A stretch of 5,055 nt of DNA from a virus (taxonomy: Duplodnaviria > Heunggongvirae > Uroviricota > Caudoviricetes): IMG/VR virus record IMGVR_UViG_2706794666_000005; one strand, 5' to 3'. Under the pieces are notes generated by a model that worked only from the letters and a program-made list of their open reading frames with translations, did not search any database and was not told the DNA's origin. How positions within the stretch are numbered: the first letter of the stretch is position 1; the number at the start of each line of letters is the position of its first letter. Shown here piece after piece: positions 1 through 5,055 of this stretch. The position numbers and the translations under genes were made by a program.

Positions 1-3
1 TTC

Positions 4-36
4 AGGCCATCAGAGTTTTGCTGATGGCCTTTTTTC
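4..36 (+). terminator. Rho-independent terminator hairpin
   Basis: Perfect 10-bp inverted repeat, aggccatcag (4-13) pairing with ctgatggcct (21-30), 7-nt loop agttttg, followed by tttttcttt on the + strand. The reverse strand has no T-tract after the stem, so it is oriented for + strand transcription. Confidence 0.65.
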
Positions 37-92
37 TTTCCGATAGCACAGGTCTGTCGAAAAAAGGCCCCTATTAAGTTGTCAAGCATGTT

Positions 93-422
93 ATGACCCC
101 TGCGGGGTATAAAATGTATCAGATGGAAAAAATATCAACAGGCATTGCCTACGGCACCCTTGCCACTGTCGCCAGACAAATTAACCCGTACATCAAAGTC
201 GATATACCGGAAACAACGCGCGGCGCTCTTTACTCGTTCGTTTACAACGTGGGCGCTGGCAATTTCAGAACATCGACGCTTCTTCGCAAAATAAACCAGG
301 GCTATATCAAAGGCGCATGTGACCAGCTATGTCGCTGGACATATGCTGGCGGTAAGCAATGGAAAGGGCTGATGACCCGTCGTGAGATTGAGCGTGAAGT
401 CTGTTTGTGGGGGCAGCAATGA
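93..422 (+). CDS. Phage GH24 (T4-type) endolysin, C-terminal fragment only; probably N-terminally truncated and catalytically inactive
   Basis: The 109-aa product from about residue 23 onward ([48 protein letters not shown]...[13 protein letters not shown]) matches, from memory, the C-terminal part of phage 21 / DLP12-type lysozymes of about 165 aa. The first 22 residues ([22 protein letters not shown]) do not. An in-frame TAA at 75-77 prevents any upstream extension. The stop TGA (420-422) overlaps the Rz ATG (419-421) as ATGA, the classic R/Rz junction. Confidence 0.6.
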
Positions 423-883
423 GCAGAGTCACCGCGATTATCTCCGCTCTGGTTATCTGCATCATCGTCTGCCTGTCATGGGCTGTTAATCATTACCGTG
501 ATAACGCCATTACCTACAAAGAGCAGCGCGACAAAAACGCAAGAGAACTGAAGCTGGCGAACGCAACCATTACTGACATGCAGCAGAGACAGCGTGATGT
601 TAATGCACTCGATGCTAAATACACGAAGGAGTTAGCTGATGCGAAAGCTGAAAATGAAACTCTGCGCGCTGATGTTGCCGCTGGTCGTCGTCGGTTGCAC
701 ATCAAAGCAGTCTGTCAGTCAGTGCGTGAAGCCACCACCGCCTCCGGCGTGGATAATGCAACCAGCCCCCGACTGGCAGACACCGCTGAACGGGATTATT
801 TCACCCTCAGAGAGCGGCTGATGACGATGCAGATGCAACTGGAAGGGGCACAGGAGTATATCCGCACTCAGTGCATTAAGTAG
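419..883 (+). CDS. Rz: Rz-like i-spanin (inner-membrane spanin subunit)
   Basis: 154 aa from ATG 419: [34 protein letters not shown]... has an N-terminal transmembrane helix, a coiled-coil-like periplasmic region and a C-terminus closely resembling lambda Rz as I recall it. I prefer ATG 419 to the ORF-track GTG 407 because of the ATGA overlap with the upstream stop. Confidence 0.9.
639..821 (+). CDS. Rz1: Rz1-like o-spanin (outer-membrane lipoprotein), nested in the +1 frame of Rz
   Basis: 60 aa, [60 protein letters not shown]: signal peptide with lipobox LVVVGC, then a proline-rich mature peptide, near-identical in pattern to lambda Rz1. AAGGAG at 625-630 sits 8 nt upstream of ATG 639. Entirely embedded in Rz in a different frame. 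Confidence 0.88.
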
Positions 884-925: not shown

Positions 926-1276
926 ATGCCATCACTAATCCCACGTGCCTGCCGTAAGCGTGGATGTGCAGGTACAACCACAGACAGTTCGGGTTACTGC
1001 GATAAACATCGCGGTGAAGGCTGGGTGCAGCACCAGCGCGGACTGAGCCGCCACCAGCGTGGCTATGGCTCAAAATGGACGGTGATTCGTGCCCGTATTC
1101 TGAAGCGCGATAAAGGTCTGTGTCAGTTGTGTCTGCGTGTCGGTGTGGTGAGCGAGGCGAAAACCGTCGACCACATCATCCCGAAAGCGCATGGCGGAAC
1201 AGACGCAGACAGCAACCTGCAGAGTCTGTGCTGGCCCTGCCATAAAGCGAAAACAGCGCGCGAACGAATCCGGTGA
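926..1276 (+). CDS. HNH endonuclease, phage packaging-associated
   Basis: 116 aa. C-terminal HNH motif (CQLC...VDHIIPKAHGGTDADSNLQSLCWPCHKAK) with paired Cys zinc ligands, and a Cys-rich N-terminus (CRKRGCAGTTTDSSGYCDKH). GAGG at 917-920 lies 5 nt before ATG 926. Sits immediately upstream of the terminase genes, as in HK97-like phages. Confidence 0.9.
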   Translation: MPSLIPRACRKRGCAGTTTDSSGYCDKHRGEGWVQHQRGLSRHQRGYGSKWTVIRARILKRDKGLCQLCLRVGVVSEAKTVDHIIPKAHGGTDADSNLQSLCWPCHKAKTARERIR

Positions 1277-1397: not shown

Positions 1398-1892
1398 ATG
1401 GCTGGAACGGCGGGGCGTTCCGGGCGTCGCCCCAAGCCAACGGCGCGCAAGGCGCTGGCCGGAAACCCCGGCAAGCGAGCCCTGAACAAAGATGAACCTG
1501 TTTTTACGCCCATCAAAGGTGTTGAGCCACCAGAGTGGTTCGCTGAAGAAGATCTCCCTCTCGCCACGATCATGTGGCAACTGACAACCAAAGAACTCTG
1601 CGGTCAGGGCCTGCTGTGCGTGACTGACCTGGCGGTACTTGAGCGGTGGTGCGTGGCCTATGAGTTCTGGCGACGTGCCGTGAAAAATATTGCCATACAG
1701 GGCAACACCATCACCGGTGCAATGGGCGGCAGGGTCAAAAATCCGGAGCTGACCGCCAAAAAAGAACAGGAGTCCGAGATGAGCAGCACGGGGGCAATGC
1801 TCGGACTCGACCCCAGCAGCCGCCAGCGTCTGATTGGCCTGGCGGGGCAGAAGAAAGCCACTAACCCGTTTCTGAAAATTATCGAATCATGA
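1398..1892 (+). CDS. Terminase small subunit, P27 family
   Basis: 164 aa from ATG 1398, with AGGAG at 1384-1388 nine nt upstream. The basic N-terminus with the GNPGKR motif ([28 protein letters not shown]) is typical of P27-family TerS. The stop overlaps the terL start as ATGA (1889-1892). I reject the ORF-track GTG 1389 because it has no spacer from the SD. Confidence 0.88.
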
Positions 1893-3622
1893 GCCGGAAA
1901 TCTTACCCCAACGTAAATGCTGCAAATCAGTATGCCCGGGATGTCGTGCGCGGAAAGATTGTTGCCTGCCAGTTTGTGATTCAGGCCTGCCAGCGCCATC
2001 TTGATGACCTGATGGCGGAAAAAAGTAAGTCGTTTCGTTACCGCTTCGACAAGGACCTGGCTGAACGGGCCGCGAAATTTATTCAGCTGTTGCCGCACAC
2101 CAAGGGGGAGTGGGCATTCAAACGGATGCCCATCACGCTGGAGCCGTGGCAGCTATTTGTGATCTGCTGTGCGTTTGGCTGGGTCAATAAAGGCACCCGG
2201 TTGCGCCGCTTCCGGGAGGTGTACACCGAAATCCCCCGTAAGAACGGCAAATCAGCAATCTCTGCCGGTGTTGCCCTGTATTGTTTTGCCTGTGATAACG
2301 AGTTTGGCGCGGAAGTGTATTCCGGTGCCACGACAGAGAAACAGGCGTGGGAAGTCTTTCGCCCGGCGCGACTGATGTGTAAACGCACACCCATGCTGAC
2401 GGAAGCGTTCGGGATTGAGGTTAACGCCTCAAACATGAACCGTCCGGAGGATGGCGCGCGGTTTGAACCGCTGATCGGCAACCCAGGTGATGGTTCATCA
2501 CCCCACTGTGCCGTGGTTGATGAATATCACGAGCATGCCACCGATGCGCTTTATACCACAATGCTTACCGGGATGGGGGCGCGACGTCAGCCACTGATGT
2601 GGGCCATCACCACCGCCGGGTACAACATTGAGGGGCCGTGCTACGACAAGCGGCGGGAAGTCATCGAGATGCTCAACGGCTCGGTGCCTAACGATGAACT
2701 GTTCGGGATCATCTATACCGTTGATGAAGGTGACGACTGGACCGGCCCGCAGGTGCTGGAAAAAGCCAATCCAAATATTGGCGTGTCGGTTTATCGCGAA
2801 TTTTTGTTAAGTCAGCAGCAGCGTGCGAAAAATAACGCCCGTCTGGCAAACGTCTTTAAAACAAAACACCTCAATATCTGGGTGTCGGCGCGTTCGGCGT
2901 ATTTCAACTTGGTGAGCTGGCAGAGCTGCGAGGATAAATCACTGACCCTTGAGCAGTTCGAGGGGCAGCCGTGCATTCTGGCCTTTGACCTGGCGCGTAA
3001 GCTGGATATGAACAGCATGGCGCGACTTTATACCCGCGAGATTGACGGTAAAACGCATTACTACAGTGTGGCCCCGCGTTTCTGGGTACCGTATGACACG
3101 GTGTACAGCGTCGAGAAAAATGAAGATCGACGGACAGCCGAACGCTTTCAGAAATGGGTGGAAATGGGCGTTCTGACCGTTACCGATGGTGCGGAGGTGG
3201 ATTATCGCTACATCCTCGAGGAGGCCAAAGCGGCGAACAAAATCAGCCCGGTCAGTGAGTCACCCATCGACCCCTTCGGGGCGACCGGGTTGTCACATGA
3301 CCTTGCTGATGAAGACCTGAATCCCGTCACTATCGTCCAGAACTTCACCAATATGTCCGATCCGATGAAAGAGCTGGAAGCAGCGATTGAATCGGGACGT
3401 TTTCATCATGACGGCAATCCCATCATGACCTGGTGTATCGGCAACGTGGTCGGCAAAAACATGCCGGGTAACGATGATGTGGTGAAACCCGTCAAAGAGC
3501 AGGCGGAAAACAAAATCGATGGTGCAGTTGCGCTGATTATGGCGGTTGGCAGAGCCATGCTGTACGAGAAAGAAGACACGCTGTCTGACCACATTGAGTC
3601 CTACGGGATCCGCTCGCTTTAA
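1889..3622 (+). CDS. Terminase large subunit (ATPase/nuclease)
   Basis: 577 aa. Walker A-like IPRKNGKS at nt 2231-2254, Walker B-like CAVVDEYHE, and a C-terminal nuclease-like region with conserved acidic residues ([24 protein letters not shown]). Size and position fit a Terminase_1-type TerL. Translationally coupled to terS. Confidence 0.92.
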
Positions 3623-3633
3623 CTGAGGTAATT

Positions 3634-3816
3634 ATGATCATGCTGATTCTCGCGCCTCTGGTGGGCGTGCTGGGTGCGCTTTTGCTGGCGTATGGTGCCT
3701 GGCTGATTTATCCCCCGGCGGGTTTTGTTGTTGCCGGGGCGCTGTGCCTGTTCTGGTCGTGGCTGGTGGCGCGATATCTCGACCGTACACGGCAGTCTGT
3801 CGGCGGAGGTAAATAG
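3634..3816 (+). CDS. Small hypothetical membrane protein (two predicted transmembrane helices)
   Basis: 60 aa, [60 protein letters not shown]: two hydrophobic helices and a basic C-terminal tail. GAGGT at 3625-3629 lies 4 nt before ATG 3634. Codon usage is host-like (ctg, gcg, ggt, gtg). Its last codons carry the SD for the downstream portal start. Confidence 0.6.
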
Positions 3817-4972
3817 TGTTCTTTTCGGGATTATTTCAACGAAAAAGCGATGTGCCGGTGACCACGCCAGCAGAACTGCTGATGCTATCGGGCTGTCATA
3901 CGACACCTATACCGGAAAGCGGATCAGTAGCCAGCGGGCCATGCGCCTGACGGCGGTCTATTCTTGCGTCAGGGTGCTGGCAGAGTCTGTTGGTATGCTG
4001 CCCTGCAGTCTCTACAAAATCAGCGGTACCCTGAAAACACGGGCGGTGGATGAACGACTGCATAAGTTGGTTTCGGCAAAACCTAATGGCTACATGACAC
4101 CGCAGGAATTCTGGGAGCTGGTTATTGTCTGCCTGTGTCTACGGGGGAATTTTTACGCCTACAAGGTAAAGGCACTGGGAGAAGTGGTGGAGCTTCTTCC
4201 GATAGATCCGGGCTGTGTGGAACCGAAGCTGAACAGCCAGTGGCAGCCGGTTTATCAGGTGACGTTTCCGGATGGTTCCGTGGATGTGTTGACCCAGAAT
4301 GAAATCTGGCATGTGCGCACCCTGACGCTGGATGGACTTGTCGGGCTGAATCCCATTGCGTATGCGCGTGAGGCCATTTCACTGGCAGCGGCAACCGAGG
4401 AGCACGGTGCCAGGTTGTTTAGTAATGGTGCGGTGACATCCGGTGTGTTGCGTACGGAACAAAAGCTCACGCCGGATGCTTACGAGCGTCTGAAGAAAGA
4501 TTTTGAGGAGTGTCACACGGGGCTTGGCAATGCTCACCGCCCGATGATTCTGGAAATGGGGCTGGACTGGAAGTCGATGGCGCTGAACGCCGAGGACAGT
4601 CAGTTCCTGGAAACCCGCAAGTTTCAGCTGGAAGAAATCTGTCGTCTGTTCCGGGTGCCGTTGCACATGGTGCAGAACACCGATCGCGCCACCTTCAACA
4701 ATATCGAAGAGCTGGGGCTGGGATTTATCAACTATTCACTGGTGCCGTATCTGACCCGCATCGAACAGCGGATCAACACCGGACTGGTACGAAAAAGTAA
4801 GCAGGGCGTTTATTACGCCAAATTTAACGCCGGGGCGTTACTGCGCGGGGATATGAAGTCCCGTTTTGAAGCCTACGCCACCGGGATCAACTGGGGAATT
4901 TACTCTTCCAATGACTGCCGCGACCTGGAAGATATGAATCCGCGTCCCGGTGGTGTAATGCCGATCAGTTAA
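3816..4972 (+). CDS. Portal protein, HK97 family; start and body are in different frames as read (apparent 1-nt frame break near 3890-3893)
   Basis: The body (frame 2, to stop 4970-4972) has HK97-portal hallmarks: RLTAVYSCVRVLAESVGMLPCSLYK near the N-terminus and FLETRKFQLEEICRLFRVPLHMV. The best start signal is GTG 3816 in frame 0, with a perfect GGAGG (3805-3809) 6 nt upstream, overlapping the upstream stop as TAGTG. Frame 0 gives MFFSGLFQRKSDVPVTTPAELLMLSG... but hits TGA at 3948-3950. The span is not a multiple of 3. Confidence 0.8.
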
Positions 4973-5004
4973 GGATCAGTTGACCGATCCAGTGGCTGTG
5001 TAAG

Positions 5005-5039
5005 AATCCGGAAACGCTCACTTGTTTCCGGATTTTTTT
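5005..5039 (+). terminator. Rho-independent terminator downstream of portal
   Basis: atccggaaac (5006-5015) pairs perfectly with gtttccggat (5024-5033), 8-nt loop gctcactt, followed by a T-run (5034-5039). The T-tract is present only in the + orientation. Confidence 0.7.
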
Positions 5040-5055
5040 ATGCACATTGGACAGG

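Follow-up and report, generated by a model that had tools for sequence, protein, structure and literature searches.

What does a gene for a small membrane protein do between the genes for the large terminase subunit (terL) and the portal protein of a tailed phage? The question is raised by a 5,055-nucleotide (nt) stretch of virus DNA (IMG/VR record IMGVR_UViG_2706794666_000005; 'the window' below means this whole stretch), in which an open reading frame (ORF) of 60 amino acids (aa) occupies positions 3634-3816 from ATG to TAG, exactly as a preliminary description of the sequence had reported. That description took the ORF for an inserted accessory gene, or moron. The comparisons presented here lead to a different view. 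The ORF is almost certainly ymfR, a member of family PHROG 502 encoding a 60-aa helical hairpin, predicted to lie in the inner membrane, its two termini being cytoplasmic and a conserved YPPAG turn facing the periplasm, and it is a fixed component of the late operon for head formation and packaging in phages of the P27/ST64B/SfI-SfII-SfIV/e14 type.

YmfR and its family

The window protein matched the PHROG 502 profile (annotated as "membrane protein") with E=2.8e-28, residues 1-55 aligning to positions 3-57 of the 58 in the profile. Neither the gene nor its name is new: in complete Escherichia coli genomes the PGAP annotation of the homologous gene reads "ymfR: protein YmfR", and region 3400-4100 of the window is present in 1604 of 5426 E. 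coli genomes. The product is 98% identical to L37 of phiP27, annotated there as 'putative integral membrane protein'. YmfR of e14, L37 of phiP27 and Sb3 of ST64B resemble the window copy in length, in their two helices, in their position between terL and portal and in the overlap of stop and start codons; no material difference was noted apart from the degraded state of the prophage in the window. The order terL-ORF-portal was constant in the annotated phages phiP27 (L37), ST64B (sb3), SfI, SfII, 118970_sal3 and one Klebsiella phage. In the literature, ymfR was met only in e14 deletion lists and in one transcriptome table, and no functional study was found in searches on ymfR, on the domain DUF1056 (see below), on small membrane proteins near terminase or portal genes, or on phiP27.

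When 5.8 billion proteins were searched, 167 clusters were found, almost all of 59-61 aa, whose hosts are Escherichia, Salmonella, Shigella, Citrobacter, Klebsiella, Enterobacter, Yersinia, Hafnia and Buttiauxella. The best 120 matches of a second large protein search were all near-identical, and a scan of GTDB genomes, which used narrow patterns, gave 15 loci. When a profile of 19 enterobacterial members was compared with 1.84 billion representative proteins, 415 clusters (50% identity) were recovered at E<=1e-3; almost all of the 150 clusters among the matches listed are 45-80 aa in size. Common to the family is a core, L-(I/V)-S-Y-G-A-W-L-(I/V)-Y-x-P-A-G-(F/Y)-I-x-x-G, centred on the turn. 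The window protein conforms to this core, and the invariant residues G11, G14, G21, W23, Y26, G30 and G35 are all present. Fifty distant representatives all matched PHROG 502 and none of them matched any Pfam family.

The window contains 55 ORFs of at least 30 aa, mostly spurious, so that the size of a 60-codon ORF is by itself little evidence for a gene. The ORF is taken as real because it is conserved, as judged by the PHROG 502 match, the protein clusters, the intact copies in relatives and the ratio of nonsynonymous to synonymous substitution rates (dN/dS). Among 23 distinct nucleotide versions, median dN/dS was 0.25 overall, 0.12 for codons 1-47 (the helices) and 0.49 for codons 48-60 (the tail). 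On these comparisons ymfR is a protein-coding gene under purifying selection. The T-richness of the gene follows from its hydrophobic codons.

The two hydrophobic helices and basic tail of the preliminary description were recovered by several means. The protein has a grand average of hydropathy (GRAVY) of 1.16, with two hydrophobic stretches joined by YPPAG; charge is confined to R47, D50, R51, R53 and K60, and R47, R51, R53 and K60 make the tail basic. The structure predicted by AlphaFold2 from a 19-sequence alignment was a hairpin, with a helix at residues 2-25, a turn and a helix at 27-56 (mean predicted local distance difference test score, pLDDT, 72.8). Many family members carry a basic N-terminal extension. 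Lysine plus arginine amounted to 1.4 residues per protein at the N-terminus, 0.11 in the loop and 2.7 in the end of helix 2 and the tail; since these residues are concentrated at both ends and scarce in the loop, both termini are predicted to be cytoplasmic. Searches of Pfam and NCBIfam with YmfR gave sub-threshold matches to unrelated membrane families only. Foldseek, run against BFVD and PDB, returned uncharacterised phage hairpins only and no solved relative, a two-helix hairpin being too simple a fold to be informative. The earlier statement that no function can be assigned from the sequence is correct.

Enterobacterial P27-type terL-ymfR-portal DNA was also encountered under Gram-positive names, in OR844959.1 ('Enterococcus phage Efm 3-10', 1764 bp; 85% identical DNA) and in locus L007 ('MAG: Bacillota bacterium'; TerL and YmfR proteins 97-99% identical). 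These attributions are likely due to contamination or mis-binning.

Linkage of ymfR to the portal gene

Sets of loci anchored on the ORF are unfit for a presence/absence test, and a portal-anchored set was therefore fetched via the portal protein of a Klebsiella relative. An intact family member, with its stop codon overlapping the portal start, was found in all 80 viral contigs of this set (portal identity 81-100%), 25 variants with a PPGG motif proving to be family members on inspection. Beyond close relatives, 80 distant environmental viral contigs were fetched by the motif, 78 of which could be analysed. The next ORF encoded an HK97-type portal in 76 of the 78 (phmmer E 1e-15 to 1e-238), and the previous ORF was recognisably TerL in 47 loci, the others being mostly short or truncated. 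An Alcaligenaceae (betaproteobacterial) copy precedes a portal that shares just 35% identity with the P27 type.

The junctions on both sides of the gene are tight. Among 61 distinct copies, stop and start overlapped in 55, by one base in 47 (TGATG or TAATG) and by four bases in 8 (ATGA). The spacing between the terL stop and the ATG was 9-12 nt in 95 of 96 YmfR-type loci; in the window it is 11 nt. The portal start of the window agrees with the annotation of phiP27 (L38) and with that given by PGAP for E. coli BE311. The ribosome binding sites described earlier, one ahead of the ORF and one for the portal within its 3' end, were both confirmed (Table 1), and with them the close integration into the operon. 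A C-terminal Gly-Gly, in a final GG(E/D/K), is nearly invariant in the enterobacterial proteins and coincides with the portal GGAGG, so that its conservation is probably exerted at the nucleotide level.

This arrangement suggests how the gene may be expressed. Having no promoter of its own, ymfR would be read from the late transcript after terL. Ribosomes ending ymfR would be placed to start the portal, by the overlapping stop and start codons and by the portal ribosome binding site in the last codons. Because of these two features, YmfR and the portal would be made together and in similar low amounts. We infer this mode of expression, late transcription with translational coupling to the portal, from the gene layout and consider it quite likely.

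The inheritance of the gene was followed in phages that share only parts of the module. TerL of SfV is ~100% identical to that of the window up to the last 27 residues and 40% identical thereafter, the homology break falling at window position 3541. Beyond the break, SfV switches to another tail and another small ORF, and its portal shares only 28% identity with that of the window. The converse was seen in a Klebsiella michiganensis prophage (L012), where TerL is 24-56% identical along its length yet ends in LSDHLESYGVRSL as in the window, and is followed by a YmfR 63% identical and a portal 83% identical to those of the window. In SfV, L012 and L018, ymfR segregates with the portal type and with the C-terminal tail of TerL, but independently of the TerL body. 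From the patterns in SfV and L012, the inherited block consists of the TerL C-terminal tail, the hairpin and the portal.

The last ~14-27 TerL residues follow the portal type in SfV (L003), L012 and L018, which places recombination joints inside the 3' end of terL. These observations are consistent with a specificity block formed by TerL tail and portal. The C-terminus of TerL docks on the portal in lambda (gpA) and HK97, which fits the co-inherited block.

Hairpins in other phages and the layout of the window

The preliminary description had held that HK97-type modules carry no membrane component between terL and portal. This is correct for HK97 itself, where nothing lies in the slot and the terL stop overlaps the portal start, but not for P27-like phages, SfV, D3 or Sfi21, nor for a third of the other phages sampled. 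The sample comprised 18 phages of diverse kinds, whose HK97-type portals share 23-38% identity with the P27 portal; it is small and non-random, and helices were identified by hydropathy only. INPHARED contains ~1500 records with a portal of this type. A two-helix ORF occupied the slot in 6 of the 18: Vibrio K259, mycobacteriophage Yeet (gp9, annotated "membrane protein"), Ralstonia YO021_1, Pseudomonas PG1, Bacillus rho14 and Vibrio Va_p41. In Campylobacter phage CJIE4-1 (L432), one of the twelve without a hairpin, a MazF toxin gene (217-651) fills the terL-portal gap; the slot can therefore also host true accessory genes.

The relation of such ORFs to YmfR ranges from distant homology to analogy. 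SfV carries in the slot an unannotated 53-aa two-helix ORF (L003, NC_003444, 2289-2450; PHROG 7105, 3e-22). It is a distant homologue of YmfR, as judged by a match to PHROG 502 at 5.7e-6 and by an hhalign probability of 94% to the YmfR family, compared to 13% for the reversed control. It differs from YmfR in sequence (~29% identity), in its ATGA overlap with terL and in preceding a portal only 28% identical to the window type. The annotated portal start of SfV, GTG 2392, overlaps this ORF; it has probably been placed too far upstream, and the other portals agree better with a start near 2440 (GTG CTG CTT GAT...). In Pseudomonas phage D3, orf3 (PHROG 4810) is likewise a 54-aa two-helix ORF between terL and portal, overlapping both. 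Unlike the SfV ORF, it can be connected to YmfR only indirectly, the hhalign probability being 72% against the SfV type and 1% against the YmfR type.

Streptococcus phage Sfi21 orf59 (DUF1056, PF06341, PHROG 1142) resembles YmfR in size (59 aa), in its two hydrophobic helices and in its slot before an HK97-type portal. YmfR gave no Pfam match to DUF1056 at E<=1, the positive control Sfi21 orf59 scoring 7e-10, and the hhalign probability was 0.2% (below 2%). PHROG 1142 was touched by 2 of 50 distant YmfR relatives, at 2e-4. Homology between the two could not be detected, and DUF1056 is a positional and architectural analogue in Gram-positive hosts. It was found in 235 phage records, mostly dairy isolates of Streptococcus thermophilus phages. 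Dairy S. thermophilus phages are largely virulent, and retention of DUF1056 in them argues for a lytic-cycle role.

The remaining genes of the window, with the anatomy of ymfR, are given in Table 1.

Table 1. Features of the 5,055-nt window (positions counted from its first nucleotide)
Feature	Position	Strand	Remarks
Lysis cassette remnants: class II holin (EssD-type) gene pieces (two)	1-158		Leftmost in window
Lysozyme ORF without N-terminal part	93-422		Matches Phage_lysozyme profile positions 47-125 only
Rz	407-883		Rz1 lipoprotein gene embedded in different frame, 639-821, proline-rich
HNH endonuclease gene	926-1276		Directly upstream of terS
P27-type small terminase gene (terS)	1389-1892
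terL, large terminase subunit	1889-3622	+	Pfam TerL_ATPase, TerL_nuclease; PHROG 9; stop TAA 3620-3622
Last ~27 terL codons, co-inherited with ymfR and portal type	3539-3619	+	TerL comparisons with SfV and L012
ymfR Shine-Dalgarno GAGG	3625-3628	+	5 nt ahead of ATG
ymfR coding sequence, 60 aa plus TAG stop	3634-3816	+	ATG 3634, TAG 3814-3816
Helix 1, residues 2-25	3637-3708	+	Conserved G11, G14, G21, W23
Tight turn Y-P-P-A-G, residues 26-30	3709-3723	+	Centre of family motif SYGAWLIYxPAGFI; predicted periplasm-facing
Helix 2, residues 31-46	3724-3771	+	Conserved G35, C38, W41, S42
Basic C-terminal tail, residues 47-60	3772-3813	+	Predicted cytoplasmic; weaker constraint
Portal Shine-Dalgarno GGAGG within ymfR codons 58-59	3805-3809	+	6 nt ahead of GTG 3816
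TAGTG, ymfR stop and portal GTG start sharing one base	3814-3818	+
HK97-type portal gene, pseudogene here	3816-4955	+	Pfam Phage_portal 3e-107, TIGR01537, alignment to phiP27
IS4 element end (TAATGCCGATCAGTTAAGG... / TAATGCCGATCAGTTAAGGATCAG...) inserted in portal 3' part	4956-5055		Window ends inside the insertion sequence (IS)

The portal gene of the window carries two lesions. Compared to phiP27, a single nucleotide is deleted after 3878 (GAGCTGGCGG changed to GAACTG-CTG), so that the first 21 codons are in the frame of GTG 3816 and the rest in the frame of an apparent ORF, 3725-4972. This long TTG-started ORF, which overlaps ymfR, is an artefact of the deletion; the objection foreseen in the preliminary description, a true portal start lying upstream and spanning the region in another frame, does not hold. 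The same frameshift is present in IMG/VR contigs L021-L024, in which YmfR, TerL and positions 3817-3960 are identical to those of the window. At the 3' end, some 33 terminal codons of the portal are lost to the IS4 element. Part of the holin and lysozyme region is deleted as well, and none of the complete E. coli genomes matched the whole window above ~93%. On this sequence the prophage is defective, and its intact ymfR is probably a leftover, a small gene not yet hit.

Rz and Rz1 form the usual spanin arrangement, which looks intact despite the damage in the other lysis genes. In phiP27 a cos site is annotated between the HNH gene and terS, and the corresponding stretch of the window is 1276-1389. 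A gene order of HNH plus terminase has been described for HK97-like cos phages.

Candidate functions

Concerning its role, we lean slightly towards the view that YmfR acts in the lytic cycle on the portal side of the head module. What it would do there is less certain. The best explanation as a whole, a late, portal-coupled membrane accessory protein, is put forward tentatively. A more precise role, suggested by analogy and in our view possible though rather doubtful, would be to assist, from a place in the membrane, either the initiation of the portal ring or prohead or the packaging complex. Such a portal helper is favoured because of the family-wide coupling to the portal and because of a precedent in T4. 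There, the portal initiator (gp20) is built up at the inner membrane together with the phage membrane protein gp40 (PMC9958956), which aids portal assembly at the membrane as proposed here for YmfR. By likeness, YmfR could act as a tether or chaperone that holds a new portal at the inner membrane. The functional link between the two is one that we infer entirely; what is shown for YmfR is its genomic coupling to the portal. Genes 40 and 20 are not known to be neighbours in T4.

Several points weigh against a portal-side function. HK97 and 12 of the 18 sampled phages have no slot hairpin, so that a hairpin is not essential for an HK97-type head. The best-conserved residues lie in the membrane and in the predicted periplasmic turn, while the cytoplasmic tails, the would-be portal contacts, are variable; this topology is itself predicted from charge distribution only. 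A feature of the portal N-terminus specific to hairpin phages was sought and none was found, a GLF...R-rich N-terminus occurring both with and without a hairpin. Co-inheritance could also be explained by hitch-hiking, the hairpin being carried between a TerL tail and a portal that need to match, in a region that offers no intergenic DNA for recombination. Finally, no experimental study of any family member was found in the literature.

Among the alternatives, the one that survives best, although it seems unlikely, is a late membrane effector of lysis, that is, a holin-like, antiholin-like or depolarising peptide tuning lysis timing. YmfR has the build of a class II holin (S21/EssD family): it is small, with two helices, a predicted N-in/C-in topology (from hydropathy and charge), a charged, basic C-terminal tail and, in many members, a helix 1 rich in G and A. 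Late expression together with head genes would also suit such a role. However, these phages already possess a class II holin, EssD, beside lysozyme and Rz. No similarity between YmfR and EssD was detected (BLASTP E=0.077 over 9 residues), nor did YmfR match any Pfam holin family at E<=1. In contrast to class II holins, YmfR does not lie beside the endolysin gene: it abuts the portal in 76 of 78 distant and in all 80 close loci, never being seen in a lysis cassette, and in phiP27, L37 lies ~3.9 kb downstream of the endolysin gene L30, past HNH, terS and terL.

Less probable again is the moron proposed at first, in particular a superinfection-exclusion factor, which the lysogen would produce in its inner membrane to keep out the DNA of incoming phages or to benefit the host in some other way. 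PHROG places family 502 in the category 'moron, auxiliary metabolic gene and host takeover', and small inner-membrane exclusion proteins do exist, such as HK97 gp15 and T4 Imm. Like gp15 and the bor-like morons, YmfR is a small membrane protein encoded within the late region. The ORF is moreover intact in decayed prophages, in the window as well as in terL- and portal-truncated loci (L006 and L008), but the survival of a 183-bp gene in a decaying prophage is unremarkable. Morons have their own promoter and terminator and vary among close relatives, and neither was observed here. A consensus scan of the + strand detected no sigma-70-like promoter and no intrinsic terminator flanking 3634-3816. 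GC content gave no break, with 0.59 in the ORF and 0.52-0.57 in the flanks, the stop codon overlaps the start of an essential late gene, and presence/absence variation was nil in the 80 portal-anchored relatives. PADLOC models matched neither YmfR, the SfV ORF, D3 orf3 nor the ORF of locus L019. Under SOS conditions in K-12, ymfR of e14 was up (log2 fold change 4.5) together with other e14 genes (PMC10012262); co-induction with lytic genes looks unlike lysogen-specific expression.

A true moron does occur nearby in E. coli BE311 (L422), where Rz and HNH are separated by iss (increased serum survival; 2255-2548), a bor-like gene for a lipoprotein, encoded on the opposite strand. It is absent from the window.

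Slightly less probable still is that ymfR serves mainly as a translational-coupling leader which sets portal dosage, its peptide being of little importance. The stop/start overlap and the Shine-Dalgarno sequence in the last codons are conserved family-wide, and a Shine-Dalgarno requirement at the nucleotide level would explain the C-terminal GG codons. Yet a leader needs no particular amino acid sequence, and dN/dS over the helices is 0.12, the 415 clusters (50% identity) all retain one motif and the length is steady at ~50-65 aa. In addition, HK97 and others couple terL straight to portal. The coupling is probably real but comes in addition to a function of the protein.

The last candidate, a head-tail joining or connector protein equivalent to lambda gpW, is effectively refuted: lambda W likewise lies between terL (A) and portal (B), is similar in size and has lent its name to database labels, but no alignment of YmfR to gpW was obtained even at E<=100, and gpW is hydrophilic (GRAVY -0.49, calculated on a provisional gpW sequence) where YmfR is a hydrophobic hairpin. 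The labels in question, 'head-tail joining protein W', 'head-tail connector protein' and 'capsid and scaffold protein', are carried by YmfR or the DUF1056 analogue in GenBank ON470603, ON470584, ON470580, PQ793804 and many S. thermophilus phage records, and look position-based.

Taken alone, the gene in the window matters little, as it is annotated, uncharacterised and located in a dead prophage. The family picture is more useful, with a hairpin of ~55-65 residues welded to the portal gene across hundreds of clusters and several bacterial phyla. This cross-phylum coupling of hairpin and portal was not found discussed in the searchable literature. It also allows database labels to be corrected, namely the PHROG 'moron' category, the GenBank head-tail joining W and connector names and the lack of annotation in SfV. 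Returning to the portal-coupled membrane protein as the preferred reading, a bolder generalisation, which we regard as a long shot, is that YmfR/PHROG 502 and its look-alikes in the slot (the SfV type, D3 orf3, DUF1056, mycobacteriophage gp9) may constitute a widespread membrane partner of HK97-type portals, made one-for-one by coupling and serving to anchor or nucleate, on the cytoplasmic membrane, the portal ring or the packaging complex. If true, the initiation of heads at the membrane, as in T4, would be common in HK97-like phages of Gram-negative, Gram-positive and actinobacterial hosts. A membrane protein coupled to the portal would also be a concrete and genetically testable candidate for the means by which HK97-like phages secure exactly one portal ring per procapsid.

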